This document shows positions 33,759 to 44,005 of a stretch of DNA of 64,000 nucleotides, one piece after another. Position 1 is the first letter of the stretch; each line of letters begins with the position of its first letter. Below the pieces are notes generated by a model that made no database searches, was not told the DNA's origin, and worked only from the letters and a program-made list of their open reading frames with translations. Source of the DNA: Thermodesulfobacteriota bacterium (GTDB lineage: Bacteria > Desulfobacterota_D > UBA1144 > Nemesobacterales > UBA2774); the NCBI GenBank assembly GCA_965216785.1, contig OZ244197.1, positions 2,912,001 through 2,976,000 of the forward strand, written 5' to 3'. The position numbers and the translations under genes were made by a program.

Positions 33759-34439
33759 TCAAAATAGCGCCTCTAGCTCATCCAGCCCGAGCTCTTCAAG
33801 GCTGTTTTTAATTAATTGAGCCTGAGAGAGCTTCTCCTCGGGGTAGGAGTTTGTTATAGCGAGACATTTCATGCCTGCCGCAATAGCGGCGTTAATACCC
33901 GCAAGTGAATCTTCAATCACAAGACAGTTTTCCGCGAAAATTGCTCCCGAATCGGGAAAGGCCAGATTAACCTGTGAGAGCGCTTCTATAAATACATCCG
34001 GTGCGGGTTTAGATCTCTCCACGTCCTCAGCGCTTACAATCACCTTAAAAAAGCTTTCCAGTCCCGCGTGTTTTAGAATTTGCCTTATCTCCCCCTCAAG
34101 TGCTCCGGAACCTATCGCGAGCGGGTACTTGCGAGCTACCTTCTTTATAAACTCCCCCGCACCGGGCAGCAGCTCAATATTCCCGCCTAACAGCTCATCG
34201 AAACTTACCGATTTAACTTTCATCATTTCGTCAATGTTAAGCTCTTTGGGCCCTATTTCCCTGTCTTTAAGCAGCTCGCGAAAGAAAGTCTTGTCATCAT
34301 AGGCGAGGTACTTAGAAAAATATTCCTCTTCCGTGATTTCCATGCCGTAGCCACCTAGAGTCACCTGAAACGCTTTTAGGTGCAGGGGCTCTGTATGAGC
34401 GATAATACCGTCGAAGTCAAATATAATTGCTTTTAACAT
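33759..34439 (-). CDS. HAD-family phosphatase (beta-PGM/CbbY-like)
   Basis: IFDFDGII, KPAPD, VIEDS..GI.AA..AGM. Confidence 0.9.
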   Translation of the reverse strand: MLKAIIFDFDGIIAHTEPLHLKAFQVTLGGYGMEITEEEYFSKYLAYDDKTFFRELLKDREIGPKELNIDEMMKVKSVSFDELLGGNIELLPGAGEFIKKVARKYPLAIGSGALEGEIRQILKHAGLESFFKVIVSAEDVERSKPAPDVFIEALSQVNLAFPDSGAIFAENCLVIEDSLAGINAAIAAGMKCLAITNSYPEEKLSQAQLIKNSLEELGLDELEALF

Positions 34440-34742
34440 TTCTATACTATTCCTAGAGCTTAAACTACCCTAAACACATTGGGTTAAACCTAAAATATTT
34501 ATCTTGTTAGAGGACTTAGCATACCATAATCAAGTAATTCAAGTAGATATATATGACTTTAGTGCTTACAAACCCAGCTAGAACCCGCCCTTAACTATTT
34601 ATCTGGTTTGACTAAACAGGTCTCATCTCATATCTTCATAGATATAAGGTTGAGGCTTAGCAATACTATGTAAATTATTAGTGTTTCGGTCATTTCCGAA
34701 ATTGACGCATCTTTTGAGATAAACAATCATCTAAATTTGGGT

Positions 34743-35078
34743 ATGCATAACGTCATGGATTCTACCAAATGCGCTAAGGTATTAAGAGCTCTCGGAGACG
34801 ATACACGGCTTAGAATTCTTGATTTTCTTTTTAGCGGAGAGTTTTCGGTCTCGGACATTTCAGAAGGCGTAGGAATAGAATACTCACAGGTATCACATCA
34901 CCTGAGCGTACTTCGAAACGCGGGGCTCGTATCAGACAGTAAAGAGGGTAAGTTCGTCATGTATAAATTGCACCCTGTTTTTTATGATGAGAATTCAGAT
35001 AAAAAGAATGTGCTCGACTTTGAGTGCTGCAGCATAAAATTCAACAATAAGGAATTTATCAAAGACAAAAACACTTAG
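34743..35078 (+). CDS. arsR: ArsR/SmtB-family repressor with a C-terminal Cys-Cys pair (start 34743 or 34755)
   Basis: LRALGDDTRLRIL, VSHHLSVLRNAGLV HTH; LDFECC tail; upstream of arsM. Confidence 0.88.
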   Translation: MHNVMDSTKCAKVLRALGDDTRLRILDFLFSGEFSVSDISEGVGIEYSQVSHHLSVLRNAGLVSDSKEGKFVMYKLHPVFYDENSDKKNVLDFECCSIKFNNKEFIKDKNT

Positions 35079-35232
35079 TTTTACTTTACATTCGGATATT
35101 AATACAAACATCGGAATGAGTTGTTTAAATATATTTCATTAGTAGCAATGTATTGCTTAACATTTATAAGTAGCACTGACTGTACACGAATAAAAATACG
35201 CTAAGCAATCACGAACAGGAGGCAGTAATTAA

Positions 35233-36207
35233 ATGCAGAAGAATGAAAGTACAAGAGAATTTGTAAAAGACTACTACGGTAAGGCCGCAAAGGAACCTAG
35301 AGACAACCTCTGCTGTCCTACGAGCTACCCTGAAGAAGATACAAGCCATATACCCTCTGAGGTCATAGAGCGTTTCTACGGGTGCGGAAGCCCGATGAGC
35401 ATTGCGGGGATAAGCCCCGGGGAAACAGTATTAGACCTTGGCTCAGGAGCGGGAATTGACTGCTTCATAGCGGCAAAGAAAACCGGGGCGGAGGGAGAAG
35501 TAATCGGAGTTGATATGACCGATGAAATGCTTAAAGTTGCAAATAGCTCAAAAACAAAAGTCGCGGGGAACCTCGGGTACGGTAACGTAGAATTCAGGAA
35601 AGGTTTTCTTGAAGAGATTCCAGTCGAAAACAAGTCTGTTGACCTCATTACTTCTAACTGCGTGATAAACCTATCGCCTGACAAAAGGAAAGTATTTTCC
35701 GAGATGAATAGAGCACTTAAGGACCACGGAAGGATTGTGGTGTCGGATATCGTTTCAGAGCGCGAAATACCAGAGAACCTAAGAACAAACGAGGAGCTTG
35801 TCGGCCAGTGCATTGCCGGAGCGCTAACAGAAACACAGTTCCTTTCCTACCTCGAGCAAACAGGGTTTTACGGGATTGAAGTACTGAGTAAAACCTATTG
35901 GAAGAGTGTAGAGAACTTGGACTTCTATTCAATATCAGTCAGGGGCTATAAATTTGAAAAAACAGCGGGTTGTATATTTGTTGGGCAGGAGGCAGTTTAC
36001 AAAGGCCCGTACAAATACATAATTGACGAAGAGGGCCATGTATTTCCCCGAAACCAGGCTGTGGAGGTATGCACAGATACGGCAAAGAAGCTCCAGGCGA
36101 AACCGTATACCGGCGCTTTCACTATAATAGAGCCGGCAGAAAACAGCGGCGCTTCGTTCTCCTGCACACCTAACAACAGCGCTAATGGTAACGGGAGCTG
36201 CTGTTAA
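35233..36207 (+). CDS. arsM: Arsenite S-adenosylmethionine methyltransferase
   Basis: LCCP, FYGCGSP, VLDLGSGAGID, SNCVINLSPDK, GQCIAGA (the Cys set of ArsM/AS3MT) plus a C-terminal domain ending in SCC. Confidence 0.88.
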   Translation: MQKNESTREFVKDYYGKAAKEPRDNLCCPTSYPEEDTSHIPSEVIERFYGCGSPMSIAGISPGETVLDLGSGAGIDCFIAAKKTGAEGEVIGVDMTDEMLKVANSSKTKVAGNLGYGNVEFRKGFLEEIPVENKSVDLITSNCVINLSPDKRKVFSEMNRALKDHGRIVVSDIVSEREIPENLRTNEELVGQCIAGALTETQFLSYLEQTGFYGIEVLSKTYWKSVENLDFYSISVRGYKFEKTAGCIFVGQEAVYKGPYKYIIDEEGHVFPRNQAVEVCTDTAKKLQAKPYTGAFTIIEPAENSGASFSCTPNNSANGNGSCC

Positions 36208-36236
36208 TCAGTCAATAATCTACAAGGGAGGGACAT

Positions 36237-36572
36237 ATGGATTATTACGATTCAAAAGACCTTAAACGCTTCTCAGAGGTAGGTAAATTCAGTGAAGAGC
36301 TTATGAAGAAGTTCTTCGATTACTATAATGCCGTTACGGGAGAAGACGGCGCGCTGACTAAAAGAGAGAAGTCTCTGATCGCTCTTGCCGTGTCGCACGC
36401 TAAGAAATGTCCTTATTGCATCGATGCCTATACCACCCAGTGTCTTGAGACTGGGGCCGATCCCGAGCAGATGACCGAAGCTGTTCATGTTGCAGCCTCA
36501 CTTGAGGCGGGCATCACTCTCATACACGGCATTCAGATGCATAACACGCTGGAAAAAAACGGAGCGCTCTAA
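36237..36572 (+). CDS. AhpD/CMD-family protein associated with arsenosugar radical SAM clusters
   Basis: GALTKREKSLIALAV...KCPYCIDAY, EQMTEAVHVAA; between arsM and arsS. Confidence 0.85.
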   Translation: MDYYDSKDLKRFSEVGKFSEELMKKFFDYYNAVTGEDGALTKREKSLIALAVSHAKKCPYCIDAYTTQCLETGADPEQMTEAVHVAASLEAGITLIHGIQMHNTLEKNGAL

Positions 36573-36638
36573 ATCTTCGTATATAGGTTAAAAAAGCAGT
36601 ATCGGTAAAGAGACCGCTATATTCAAGGAGTATTAATA

Positions 36639-37676
36639 ATGGCTCAAGTTACAGTGCTAAAAAGAGACTACGATAGCTACGAGAAGGATAACGACAACCG
36701 CTACGATTTCCACGAAGCGCTCAGGAATAACGGAATAGAGCTAACACCCACCGAGATCGAGACTCTACAGATAAATATCACTAAACTCTGCAATCAGACA
36801 TGTCTTCATTGCCATGTTGACTCATCGCCTAAGAGAACAGAGCAAATGGACCTACCCACGGTGGATCGCTGTCTGCAGATACTGGCCCGCCACGAGTCTA
36901 TAAAGAACCTCGACATTACAGGGGGCGCTCCGGAACTAAACCCCCATTTTGATTACATGGTAAAAAGCGCGCGTGAGTTAGGTAAGCACGTAATGGTAAG
37001 ACATAACCTCACGGTTACGATTGACGGACACCCCGTCACCGGGGAGAGTAAATGCTATCTACCCAAGTTCTATGCAGCTCAAGGAGTCGAAGTAATATCA
37101 TCACTCCCCTATTACCAGGAATACTTCACCGATAAGCAGCGCGGAAAGGGAGTTTTTGAAAAGAGCATAGAGTCCATACGAATGCTTAACAATTTAGGTT
37201 ACGGGAAAAAAGATACAGGGCTTGAGCTTAATTTCGTCTATAACCCCGTAGGCGCTTTTCTGCCCGCGTCGCAAGAGACGCTCGAGGCTGATTTTAAGCG
37301 CGAGCTCTCAAAAAAATTCGGAATCGTATTCAATAAGCTTTTCACGATAACTAACATGCCGATTAACCGTTTTAAGGATCAGCTCAAACGCCTTGGCGCT
37401 TATGAAGAATATATGGAGAAGCTCGTAAACGCATTTAATCCTAGCGCGGCTGAGGGCGTTATGTGCCGCTCGCTAATAAGTATTAGCCACGACGGCAGGG
37501 TATATGACTGTGATTTCAATCAGATGATGGATCTTCAGATCCACTCAAACCATAAGCCGCTTTCCGTCTTTGATTTTGACTACGAAGAGCTCACCCGGAG
37601 AAGAATCATCTTCGGCTCTCACTGTTTCGGCTGCACGGCAGGCACCGGAAGCAGCTGCGGCGGCTCGACCGCTTAG
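36639..37676 (+). CDS. arsS: Radical SAM protein with Cys-rich C-terminus, ArsS type
   Basis: CNQTCLHCH (CxxxCxxC), DITGGAPELNP, MCR, YDCDFNQM, HCFGCTAGTGSSCGG. Confidence 0.88.
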   Translation: MAQVTVLKRDYDSYEKDNDNRYDFHEALRNNGIELTPTEIETLQINITKLCNQTCLHCHVDSSPKRTEQMDLPTVDRCLQILARHESIKNLDITGGAPELNPHFDYMVKSARELGKHVMVRHNLTVTIDGHPVTGESKCYLPKFYAAQGVEVISSLPYYQEYFTDKQRGKGVFEKSIESIRMLNNLGYGKKDTGLELNFVYNPVGAFLPASQETLEADFKRELSKKFGIVFNKLFTITNMPINRFKDQLKRLGAYEEYMEKLVNAFNPSAAEGVMCRSLISISHDGRVYDCDFNQMMDLQIHSNHKPLSVFDFDYEELTRRRIIFGSHCFGCTAGTGSSCGGSTA

Positions 37677-37717
37677 GGCAATATTCCCCGTATTGTATAA
37701 TACAAACTCACCCGATT

Positions 37718-38374
37718 ATGCCAGATAAAGCAGAAAATAATACGCTTATAATCTTCGCTAAGCTTCCCGAACCCGGAAAGGTTAAGACCCGCTTAGCCCG
37801 GGACTTGGGTGATGAGAAAGCGGCTGAGGTATATTCTGATATAGCAAGGGATATCGTTTCACGCGTCTCAAATTCCTCAATATATGAAACAGTAATATTT
37901 TACGACCCGCCCGAGAAGAAGAAGGAAATTACCCATTGGCTCAAAGACTGCGCGAATACGGATAGCGAGCACCTGCTGCCCCAGAGAGGGGGTAAGCTAG
38001 GGGATAGGATATCGGGGGCATTCGAAAGGATTTTCTCCTTGGAGAATAAGAGAGCGGTTATCATCGGTACAGACTGTACCGATGTAAGCGCCCATATGAT
38101 TGAAGAAACATTTTTAGATCTCAAAAATTTTGACGCAGTGCTTGGCCCCGCAAAGGACGGTGGGTATTATTTGCTCGGGCTTAATCAATTTGTTCCGGAG
38201 CTATTTAAAGATATAGACTGGAGCACCGATCTTGTACTCGGACAAACGCTCTCACGTCTTGATAGGTTAGGCTATAATTATAAACTGCTTGAAACTTTAA
38301 GGGATATAGACAATCTAAATGACTTAAATAGCCTCTCTTATGATTTCAAACGCAGAAAAGATAAATCCTTTTGA
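37718..38374 (+). CDS. DUF2064/TIGR04282-type transferase (CofC-like fold)
   Basis: IFAKLPEPGKVKTRL, Q.G..LGDR, IIGTDC, VLGPAKDGGYYLLG, WST, DID. Confidence 0.88.
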   Translation: MPDKAENNTLIIFAKLPEPGKVKTRLARDLGDEKAAEVYSDIARDIVSRVSNSSIYETVIFYDPPEKKKEITHWLKDCANTDSEHLLPQRGGKLGDRISGAFERIFSLENKRAVIIGTDCTDVSAHMIEETFLDLKNFDAVLGPAKDGGYYLLGLNQFVPELFKDIDWSTDLVLGQTLSRLDRLGYNYKLLETLRDIDNLNDLNSLSYDFKRRKDKSF

Positions 38375-38452: not shown

Positions 38453-38971
38453 ATGAGAACTAGTATATCGATAATCGCAATCCTTATGATCTTCACTCTA
38501 ATCACTGGTGTAGCAGCAATAGAGAGCACGCGCGCCGCAAGTGATCTGCCAGAGGCTAAAAAATTCACGCTCGGCACCCTTGACGGGAAAACACAAGTAT
38601 CGCTCGAAGATTACGCCGGTAAAGCGGTAGTGATAAATTTCTGGGCTACATGGTGCGGGCCCTGCAGAGAGGAAATGCCTCTTCTTCAAAGTGAATGGGA
38701 AAAATTTCAAAATGAAGATATCGAATTCATTGGTATTGACGTGATGGACGACAAGAACCTCGCGGCGGCTCTAATTAAAGAGATGGGAATAACTTACACA
38801 AACTTGCACGACGCTAGCGGTAAGACCTCAAACGAATATGGAGTAATAGCTCTTCCCGCAACATTTTTCATAAATAAAGAAGGCTTTATCGCAATAAAGA
38901 ATTACGGCCCTTTCTTGGGAAAAGAAGGCGAAAAGAAATTCAGGCTCTATGTCGAGGAGATTAGTGAATGA
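38453..38971 (+). CDS. TlpA/ResA-family thiol-disulfide oxidoreductase
   Basis: N-terminal TM/signal, INFWATWCGPCREEMP, LPATFFI. Confidence 0.92.
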   Translation: MRTSISIIAILMIFTLITGVAAIESTRAASDLPEAKKFTLGTLDGKTQVSLEDYAGKAVVINFWATWCGPCREEMPLLQSEWEKFQNEDIEFIGIDVMDDKNLAAALIKEMGITYTNLHDASGKTSNEYGVIALPATFFINKEGFIAIKNYGPFLGKEGEKKFRLYVEEISE

Positions 38972-39723
38972 ACCCCGCTGAGCTGCAAGTTAGCTGGGTA
39001 CTCGCATTTCTCGCAGGTGTAGTGTCCTTCCTCTCACCCTGCGTCCTTCCCCTGATACCAGGTTACGTCTCCCTTGTATCAAAGATGTCCTTTGAAGAGC
39101 TTACCGACGGTGAGACACAGGGTAAGGTAAATAAAATTTTCATACCGAGCCTCCTGTTTGTAATGGGTTTTGCTTTTGTATTTGTTACCCTCGGCGCATC
39201 TGCCTCATTCATAGGCACCTTCATTCAGGAAAACAAAGTGCTCCTGCTGAAGATCTCAGGAGTGATAATAATCTTATTCGGCCTATTCACTATGGATATT
39301 ATAAAAATTCCCCAGCTCTACAGAGAGAGACGGCTCAATGTACCTCAGGGCAACATGGGACTAGTGGGGATATTTCTTTTAGGTATTGCGTTTGGATTCG
39401 GATGGACACCTTGCGTGGGACCGATACTCGCCTCCATACTCCTGTACGCGAGCACCGCGGAAGGCGCGGGGAAAGGGGCTCTGCTCCTTTTAGTATATTC
39501 GCTTGGGCTCGGGCTCCCGTTTTTACTTACGGGCCTTGCCCTATCAAAAGCGCTTAGCGCGTTCGGATGGATAAAACGTCACTACGCGCTCTACAAGATA
39601 ATAGTAGGCGGTACACTGATCGCCGTTGGGATTCTCATGCTCTCAAATAACCTTTTCTATCTGAATATCTACGGCCAAAAAGCTCTTGACTGGGCCGGAA
39701 TTGACTTCTGGAAGACCTTCTGA
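38968..39723 (+). CDS. ccdA: CcdA/DsbD-type transmembrane electron transporter
   Basis: SFLSPCVLPLIPGY and GWTPCVGPIL; ATGA overlap with the TlpA gene. Confidence 0.93.
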   Translation: MNPAELQVSWVLAFLAGVVSFLSPCVLPLIPGYVSLVSKMSFEELTDGETQGKVNKIFIPSLLFVMGFAFVFVTLGASASFIGTFIQENKVLLLKISGVIIILFGLFTMDIIKIPQLYRERRLNVPQGNMGLVGIFLLGIAFGFGWTPCVGPILASILLYASTAEGAGKGALLLLVYSLGLGLPFLLTGLALSKALSAFGWIKRHYALYKIIVGGTLIAVGILMLSNNLFYLNIYGQKALDWAGIDFWKTF

Positions 39724-43510: not shown

Positions 43511-44005
43511 ATGAAGAATCTATTAATTACCGCATTAGTTTTAACGGCTTTTATTATTTCTTTCCCGATGGTGAGTCAGGCCAAGAAGTACGGAGGCGGC
43601 CACGGCTATAAAGGCGGTCATGGCTACAAGGGGGGCTACGGGTACAAAGGCGGCGGTTATAAGGGTGGCCATGGGTATAAAGGCGGTCATGGCTACAGAG
43701 GCAGCCGCGGATACAAAGGCCATGGGTATAAGGGTAGTTATGGTTACAGAGGTAGCCGAAGCTATAAGGGCTATGGATACAAGGGCGGTTACGGCTACAG
43801 GGGCCATGGATATAAAGGCCACGGCTACAAAAGAGGCTACGGGCACGGATATAGGGGCGGACATTACTACGGTAGAGGCTACTACAGACCTTACTACTAC
43901 AGACCCTACTACCCCGTTTACTATGCTCCCTACTACTACAGACCCTACTACCCCGTTTATCCGGTATTCCCGTTCGCTATAAACTTCGGTTTCGTATTTC
44001 ATTAA
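43511..44005 (+). CDS. Secreted Gly/Tyr/His/Lys-rich repeat protein
   Basis: GGAG RBS, signal peptide ending SQA, GGHGYK-type repeats then YYRPYY repeats. Confidence 0.8.
   Translation: MKNLLITALVLTAFIISFPMVSQAKKYGGGHGYKGGHGYKGGYGYKGGGYKGGHGYKGGHGYRGSRGYKGHGYKGSYGYRGSRSYKGYGYKGGYGYRGHGYKGHGYKRGYGHGYRGGHYYGRGYYRPYYYRPYYPVYYAPYYYRPYYPVYPVFPFAINFGFVFH
43583..43966 (+). repeat. Degenerate coding tandem repeat (~15-18 bp unit)
   Basis: ggcggccacggctataaa / ggcggtcatggctacaag variants with synonymous third-position variation; later tactactacagaccc repeats. Confidence 0.8.

Follow-up and report, generated by a model that had tools for sequence, protein, structure and literature searches.

The ArsM and ArsS pathway of Synechocystis sp. 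PCC 6803 is reportedly to be credited to the work of Xue in 2019 and of Cheng in 2021. According to the accessible parts of the literature, a limit that holds for every source cited below, ArsS of Synechocystis acts together with ArsM in the first arsenosugar steps (PMC8552651); this starter pathway is cited in PMC8552651, PMC13598754, and PMC12159101, and ArsS adenosylates trivalent dimethylarsenic, DMA(III), to dimethylarsinoyl-adenosine (DDMAA) (PMC13598754; bioRxiv 2024.02.01.577332). A further comparison is offered by the arsinothricin cluster arsQML, in which an enzyme of the radical S-adenosylmethionine (SAM) type and an ArsM cooperate in the formation of a carbon-arsenic (C-As) bond. 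Here, a stretch of 64,000 nucleotides (the window; assembly GCA_965216785.1, contig OZ244197.1, positions 2,912,001 to 2,976,000 of the forward strand) was analysed, which carries a five-gene cassette with an ArsM-type methyltransferase and an ArsS. The source genome (G000) belongs to Ca. Dadabacteria and was 92% complete on one contig. The preferred reading, to which a probability of about 0.62 was assigned, is that of an ArsM-ArsS cassette kept at one chromosomal site in Ca. Dadabacteria, predicted from sequence to convert arsenite into an arsenic-riboside, likely driven by a sigma factor of the extracytoplasmic function (ECF) type, with ArsR as an optional part.

Like the Synechocystis pair, the locus combines a radical SAM protein that passes TIGR04167 with a three-domain ArsM-type partner, and adenosylation of DMA(III) is predicted. 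It differs from Synechocystis in its methyltransferase, which belongs to a clade tied to radical-SAM fusion proteins (NF038099, 177/400), in its optional ArsR head, in an ECF-type promoter-like element, and in its Ca. Dadabacteria host. Paired scores of the form x/y give NCBIfam hidden Markov model (HMM) bits against the curated cut-off. Three models of the NCBIfam arsenosugar set TIGR04167/TIGR04169/TIGR04282/TIGR04283 were passed by contiguous genes, while the TIGR04283 glycosyltransferase was unlinked (C1:69825-70559; 181.8 vs 182 bits). The predicted cooperation of a radical SAM enzyme with a methyltransferase resembles arsQML; unlike in that cluster, the radical enzyme is an ArsS and not the noncanonical ArsL, the methyltransferase fails NF040538 (201/500), and ArsQ is missing. 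The features are as follows, in positions of the window.

34704-34735, + strand: bipartite element TG(A/C)A(A/T)CTTTT-N12-CATCTAA, putative ECF-type promoter, -35 core from 34707 and -10 core from 34728
34743-35078 (ATG; alternative TTG 34737), + strand: arsR, NF033788 ArsR/SmtB 86/55, optional part
35233-36207, + strand: three-domain ArsM-type methyltransferase, nearest to the C-terminal half of radical-SAM/SPASM-ArsM fusions
36237-36572, + strand: AhpD/CMD-like CxxC protein, TIGR04169 163/120, ArsS companion
36639-37676, + strand: ArsS radical SAM protein with DUF3641 C-terminal domain, Cys form, TIGR04167 423/300
37718-38374, + strand: DUF2064 CofC-like putative transferase, TIGR04282 197/134
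33759-34439, - strand: HAD phosphatase, conserved left slot marker, an order-wide neighbour of ArsS-type, fusion-type, and ArsM-less cassettes
38453-39723, + strand: resA-like and ccdA-like genes, conserved right slot marker, after DUF2064 in ArsS-type and fusion-type genomes

The initial annotation had described the five cassette genes as contiguous and co-oriented, and every open reading frame (ORF) was found in its place on the + strand, with gaps of 154, 29, 66, and 41 nt. The three models that it had proposed as a check, TIGR04167, TIGR04169, and TIGR04282, were all passed. The GC content of the cassette genes (0.40-0.48) was close to that of the genome (0.46). The same gene order recurs in Dadabacteria, and AhpD occurred at 78/80 ArsS loci (here and below, the best 80 of the GTDB ArsS loci), which argues that the order is not due to chance. 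Since AhpD, ArsS, and DUF2064 pass models named for arsenosugar biosynthesis, the kind of cassette is already known; on gene content and order, the five genes form a genuine cassette, and its type is the known arsenosugar one. Such a cassette alone is ordinary, and what appears distinctive is the fusion-clade methyltransferase, the exchange of modules in place, the optional ArsR, and the promoter-like motif of a putative regulon. The HAD phosphatase and resA/ccdA are treated as slot markers for which no pathway membership is claimed; resA-ccdA was not present at most non-Dadabacteria loci among the 80.

Judged by its domains, the radical SAM gene is a true member of the ArsS family, as had been claimed. 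The protein carries CxxxCxxC at C51/C55/C58 and matches PF12345 (E 4.5e-55), and its C-terminal domain is rich in cysteines (C276, C291, C329, C332, and C340). The C-terminus reads GSS-C, and not selenocysteine, in 27/27 readable relatives. The nearest structure to the DUF2064 protein was 3CGX, a putative NDP-sugar transferase (E 9e-28), and DUF2064 is common to both cassette types described below. The methyltransferase aligned with solved arsenite methyltransferases over residues 5-316 (E 3e-45) and 5-289 (E 1e-42). Its C27/C28, C51, C143, and C193 were invariant in 42/42 clade members and align with cysteine positions of solved algal enzymes, which we take to be the four catalytic cysteines of ArsM. 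The protein is predicted to be ArsM-like in action though outside the curated ArsM models.

Comparison of 101 genomes of the order, with families labelled f1-f8 and genera such as g5 and g14, revealed that the cassette sits between the HAD phosphatase and resA-ccdA throughout the order, where it occurs in three versions. The window type, methyltransferase-ahpD-arsS-DUF2064, was found in f1 and f3 as well as in single members of f2 and of f8. In the fusion type, a protein of 830-870 aa with radical-SAM, SPASM, and C-terminal methyltransferase domains is followed by DUF2064; this arrangement precedes resA-ccdA in G028, G030, G036, G041, and G042, and the HAD marker lies upstream in G030 and G041. 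The fusion was present in 11/101 genomes (10/15 of f7 and 1/2 of f5), none of which gave an ArsS match. The third version lacks ArsM and consists of ahpD-arsS-DUF2064, found at the slot in small genomes (G025, G029, G031, G032, G035, G037, G055, and G064), one of which (G029) carries a distant arsM at another place.

The methyltransferase half of the fusion was 65-70% identical to the methyltransferase of the window in genomes of the order. A search for longer homologues of the methyltransferase returned 2362 proteins, and the best 120 all had radical-SAM and methyltransferase domains with 60-70% identity in that half; those named included Scalindua, Nitrospinota, and Zixibacteria. ArsS and the radical domain of the fusion shared 22% identity over 158 aa. 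Around the fusion (best 80 of 552 metagenome loci, many on short contigs), DUF2064 was found at 27 loci, against 37/80 for ArsS loci, a TIGR04283-like gene at 13, ahpD at 0, and a true ArsS at 0. Because AhpD occurs at 78/80 ArsS loci and 0/80 fusion loci, and is kept where ArsM is lost, it follows ArsS and not ArsM. The AhpD-like protein had been proposed to keep ArsM thiols reduced; this distribution makes it more likely an ArsS partner. As the slot of the two sister families f5 and f7 lacks both ArsS and AhpD, the radical domain of the fusion is predicted to perform an equivalent C-As step, and the two radical enzymes would be natural substitutes at the slot.

The direction of the exchange was approached through trees. 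In an RpoB tree, which left out G031 and in which f6 joined f2/f8 only without outgroups, f5 and f7 were successive outgroups of the families with ArsS at the slot (supports 85-95). Their position favours an ancestral fusion and suggests that the window methyltransferase is its freed C-terminal half. Methyltransferase trees with distant ArsM outgroups (quick trees) rooted among long stand-alone branches, contrary to the fusion-first order, and with 19 rows in an approximately unbiased (AU) test, both roots stayed acceptable (p 0.13 vs 0.87). A pair of genus mates gives a good indication of one switch from fusion to split: the slot of G043 holds arsR, a stand-alone methyltransferase, and ahpD, where the contig ends, and the sister of this methyltransferase in the tree is the fused methyltransferase of G042 (support 94).

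Alignment of upstream regions revealed the bipartite element, with conserved -35 and -10 cores at fixed spacing, before 15/15 arsR loci, and a matrix built without the source genus ranked the window motif first in G000. A score of at least 15 was reached before just 9/2664 ORFs of G000. A locally shuffled genome, scored on one strand, reached 19.4. The initial annotation had called the cassette ArsR-led and arsenic-inducible, and this part was not well supported: the arsR head was missing in 11/11 further family members, where the motif, found with a matrix trained on the 15 arsR loci alone, stays 72-240 nt 5' of the methyltransferase with scores of 16-27. Among genomes from f2/f3/f8 it was found in 1/3, and weakly. 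Published ECF promoter forms include ECF18 TGCATCTT, ECF30 TGAAACTTT/CTCTAAT, and ECF116 TGAAAC/CGTCTAAT (accessible part of PMC7826278). The window motif resembles these consensus forms, which in that source belong to ECF groups other than ECF238, the group of SigZ, and on account of this likeness the element is read as an ECF promoter. The cassette is likely driven by an ECF-type stress-sigma promoter rather than mainly by ArsR. The position of the -10 element favours ATG 34743 as the probable start of arsR over TTG 34737.

Other candidate elements were rejected. A palindrome at 34627-34648 was considered as an operator and is not conserved in relatives, and the 15 aligned upstream regions showed no further palindrome. 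A copy of the motif at about 38288, before resA, was present in only 2/15 relatives. A scan for sigma-70 promoters and terminators stayed within the shuffle range (15 vs 11.4 +/- 3.0 and 5 vs 6.2).

The next-best sites of the motif in G000 precede an operon of a FAD-oxidoreductase and a 4Fe-4S protein, a DUF3179 gene, and two further genes, one of 91 aa and an unnamed one of 312 aa. Within the family the motif is kept before the orthologues of the FAD-oxidoreductase/4Fe-4S operon (6/6 cases), before close DUF3179 orthologues (3/3), and before the 312-aa gene in 10/12 loci with upstream DNA (score at least 11.6); outside the family these three sites fade. Homologues of these genes were also observed near cassettes of other bacteria, with the 4Fe-4S partner at 15/80 ArsS loci, DUF3179 at 7/80 fusion loci, and the 312-aa gene at 1/80 ArsS loci.

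Related gene sets were seen elsewhere. Locus L332 (G019:C18:74800-79900) is divergent from an arsR-pstSCAB unit and encodes a pyridine-nucleotide oxidoreductase, DedA, a TIGR04283 glycosyltransferase, a methyltransferase, and a DUF3179-like protein; a similar gene set adjoins the fusion in G041 and G046. In G000, a cluster at C1:1641823-1646129 comprises DUF547, a 793-aa FAD/4Fe-4S membrane protein, and a GT2 protein, with two ECF sigma genes upstream, and no motif copy was found there. Homologues of this cluster adjoin ArsS at 14-18/61 non-Dadabacteria loci, unlike in G000, where the three genes stand apart from the cassette.

G000 has 12 sigmas of ECF size, any of which may read the motif. 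The first candidate is a SigZ encoded at C1:2233173-2233781, which scores over cut-off and ends in a Cys-rich tail, CC...CxxC; a second candidate lies at C1:2458296. Such tails are presumed to serve ECF238 members as metal sensors (accessible parts of PMC7826278 and PMC8999054). The gene sigZ is itself preceded by a variant motif in 7/7 family genomes, two of them with a spacer shorter by one base, and in G030 and G047 the motif stands between sigZ and a canonical short arsM, with sigZ directly before arsM. Ten relatives were tested, and the 8 with the cassette motif have a SigZ-like gene (6 over cut-off), while the 2 without it (G008 and G031) have none; as these are small genomes, the joint loss is confounded. 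Against SigZ stand the statement that ECF238 lacks both conserved promoters and autoregulation, as given in the consulted part of the PMC7826278 supplement, and two other ECF genes of G000 with sites of similar score (13.9 and 14.1). Given an ECF promoter, SigZ is a tentative candidate, with somewhat less than even odds. As a side observation, G000 (3.1 Mb) gave 25 sigma-70-family matches over the TIGR02937 cut-off, about a dozen in frames of 300-450 aa, so that long alternative sigmas are unusually numerous.

The ArsR protein has cysteines solely at positions 10, 95, and 96; C95 and C96 were invariant and C10 at least 90% conserved among 33 sequences. Its predicted model (pLDDT 85) shows strands at 90-92 and 97-99, forming a beta-hairpin in place of helix alpha5, and fold matches span only about 70-80 of the 111 residues. 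The winged-helix fold is that of R773, AfArsR, and CgArsR, and the vicinal C-terminal Cys pair is shared with AfArsR and SpArsR. Three three-Cys sites are described for As(III)-sensing ArsR types 1-3 in the accessible part of PMC11868830. Unlike these types, the window protein has neither CxCxxC nor the Cys15/16/55 pattern nor a third C-terminal Cys, and the beta-hairpin replaces the C-terminal helix; none of the three sites as given there was present. RexT was rejected as a type for this ArsR, its active pair Cys40/Cys41 on helix 3 being absent here. In G019, arsR precedes a pstSCAB operon instead of the cassette. A plasmid search with ArsR at 1e-12 gave no match.

ArsS was found in 77/101 genomes of the order, 73 over cut-off. 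Across GTDB, 496 stretches from many phyla encode an ArsS relative. The nearest loci belong to Ca. Dadabacteria, at 85-90% identity; KSB1, Ignavibacteria, Nitrospirota, and proteobacteria come next. The non-cyanobacterial host stressed by the initial annotation is thus real and not special, since such cassettes are common outside cyanobacteria. The ArsS tree was poorly resolved near KSB1/Ignavibacteria. In the seven genomes of genus g5, which belongs to the family of G000 (G006, G011, G014, G017, G020, G023, and G100), ArsS, fusion, and TIGR04283 matches were 0/7 and a short canonical ArsM was present in 6/7, an apparent loss of the cassette.

The absence of resistance genes had also been proposed. 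Within the window, tblastn with ArsC and Acr3 queries gave no match, and in the whole G000 genome no Acr3, ArsB, ArsP, ArsH, or ArsK was found over cut-off, the closest Acr3-like protein being a PanS/BASS transporter. Acr3 was over cut-off in 6/101 genomes of the order (8 at E 1e-40), so the lack of classical As(III) efflux extends to most of the order. Compared with the 77/101 for ArsS, this points to missing efflux as a lineage trait and to a cassette that behaves as core inheritance and not as a resistance island. The proposal thus holds for ArsC and Acr3 in the window and for efflux in the genome, and less so for ArsC elsewhere: G000 has an arsC-like gene of the LMWPc/Trx type between pstB and phoU (C1:965389-965811; TIGR02691 137/174, below cut-off). 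Two genes with aquaporin motifs were also present. A second pstSCAB-like importer stands alone in G000 (C1:2806189-2809575), 65-76% identical to one inside the G030 cassette; in relatives (G030, G005, G007, G019, G046, and L084) it is found inside the cassette, at its side, or next to this ArsR subtype, and it may be a dedicated phosphate/arsenate importer.

In the proposed pathway, arsenate would enter by Pst transporters, and the arsC-like gene in the pst operon would account for its reduction. The methyltransferase, from its conserved cysteines and fold, would make DMA(III). By family membership, ArsS would add the 5'-deoxyadenosyl radical of SAM to DMA(III) to give DDMAA, with the AhpD-like CxxC protein, on grounds of co-occurrence, likely keeping either DMA or the C-terminal Cys of ArsS reduced. 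Similar co-occurrence suggests that ArsM-less lineages would use DMA from outside. DUF2064 and the distant TIGR04283 glycosyltransferase are putative processors of the riboside, likely towards an arsenosugar or arsenolipid. The radical step would be modular, with the radical domain of the f5/f7 fusion taking the place of ArsS.

Several observations weigh against this pathway and its proposed control. The methyltransferase falls below every NCBIfam ArsM cut-off (PRK11873 253/263, besides NF038099 and NF040538 with the scores above) and shares only about 30-39% identity with ArsMs that adjoin ArsS in other phyla. In genus g14, ArsS was present in 36/36 genomes, with no ArsM-like match at 1e-30 and no TIGR04283 at 1e-35, a pattern that would also fit a non-arsenic job for ArsS. 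G008 has arsS-DUF2064 at the slot and no ahpD. The mutual exclusion of ArsS and the fusion runs along clades and so reflects few independent events, and a distant ArsS type occurs elsewhere in G049 (f7) and in f4. As for the motif, it is weak or not present at the cassettes of f2, f3, f6, and f8, no copy was detected ahead of ahpD at 22 non-Dadabacteria loci, and conservation upstream of the TIGR04283 gene is only partial, with a score above 12 in 2/14 relatives.

Three rival explanations and a bolder version of the main reading were considered. A detoxification operon of the classical kind, repressed by ArsR and inducible by As(III), with methylation and adenosylation in place of efflux, would account for an arsR that heads ArsS-type and fusion-type cassettes alike and keeps three conserved cysteines that could bind As(III), and for the lack of an efflux pump in G000 at 92% completeness. 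According to the accessible part of PMC11868830, As(III) can also be sensed by ArsRs whose Cys sites are unusual. The same CC-type ArsR also accompanies arsM, arsS, and pstSCAB in a Nevskiales locus (L084:2955-11419), where DUF547-like, ahpD, redoxin, and glutathione peroxidase-like genes complete one run. An arsR orthologue was found in only 14/101 genomes against 77/101 for ArsS, however, and the conserved upstream element is non-palindromic and survives the loss of arsR. The sole palindrome is not conserved, and the predicted C-terminus of ArsR is beta and not the helix that carries the AfArsR site. This explanation is accordingly considered quite unlikely. Still more improbable appears a thiol/oxidant-stress or selenium-related module whose natural substrate is not arsenic and for which DMA(III) is a side or lineage-specific use. 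Genus g14 speaks for it, with ArsS kept and no ArsM match, and the three loci inspected keep ahpD-arsS-DUF2064; so do the FAD oxidoreductase and 4Fe-4S membrane protein among the candidate co-regulated genes and the listing of TIGR04167 among selenoprotein families in the accessible part of PMC13188914. The methyltransferase nevertheless keeps all catalytic Cys of ArsM, canonical short arsM genes, one with arsC nearby, also have this motif in front of them, and the sole demonstrated ArsS reaction found is on DMA(III); no SelA motif was found in G000, a weak test.

A further explanation separates the two proteins that share the slot, with the fusion as a peptide or cofactor maturase dependent on a RiPP recognition element (RRE) and carrying an ArsM domain, and the window cassette as a standard ArsS cassette. 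In some members the N-terminus of the fusion is PqqD-like (PF05402) and RRE-like, which together with the SPASM domain is typical of peptide maturases, and its best HMM matches were of the NirJ2/AhbD/mycofactocin types, all below cut-off. On the other side, the fusion shares the slot and the DUF2064 neighbour, never occurs together with ArsS in the 101 genomes, and has DUF2064 and TIGR04283-like genes around it at the frequencies given above (27/80 and 13/80, with many short contigs). It is regarded as doubtful. Comparable doubt attaches to the bolder version, in which arsenic is itself the substrate and no waste: a Cys-tailed, As(III)-sensing SigZ/ECF238 sigma would control a scattered regulon made up of the cassette, the FAD/4Fe-4S pair, DUF3179, the 312-aa protein, and the TIGR04283 transferase. 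This regulon would identify the late steps still missing from arsenosugar or arsenolipid synthesis, with the fusion as a second arsenic-adenosylating enzyme and ArsM-less lineages of small genome size scavenging DMA from the environment. The conserved ArsM-ArsS cassette with ECF-type control and optional ArsR remains the preferred reading.

Further along the window, at 43511-44005 (+), a 164-aa secreted-looking protein with Gly/Tyr/Lys/His repeats (GGHGYKGG...) is encoded. In the titles and abstracts searched, with most subscription journals outside coverage, the fusion, the regulon, and the cassette of this lineage were not described.

The occurrence of three versions at one orthologous site allows tests of the role of AhpD, of the fusion as an analogue of ArsS, and of feeding by outside DMA, and the common motif yields a short list of candidate genes for the late steps. 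The lineage thereby bears on how arsenosugar synthesis proceeds beyond DDMAA and on why bacteria keep the pathway.

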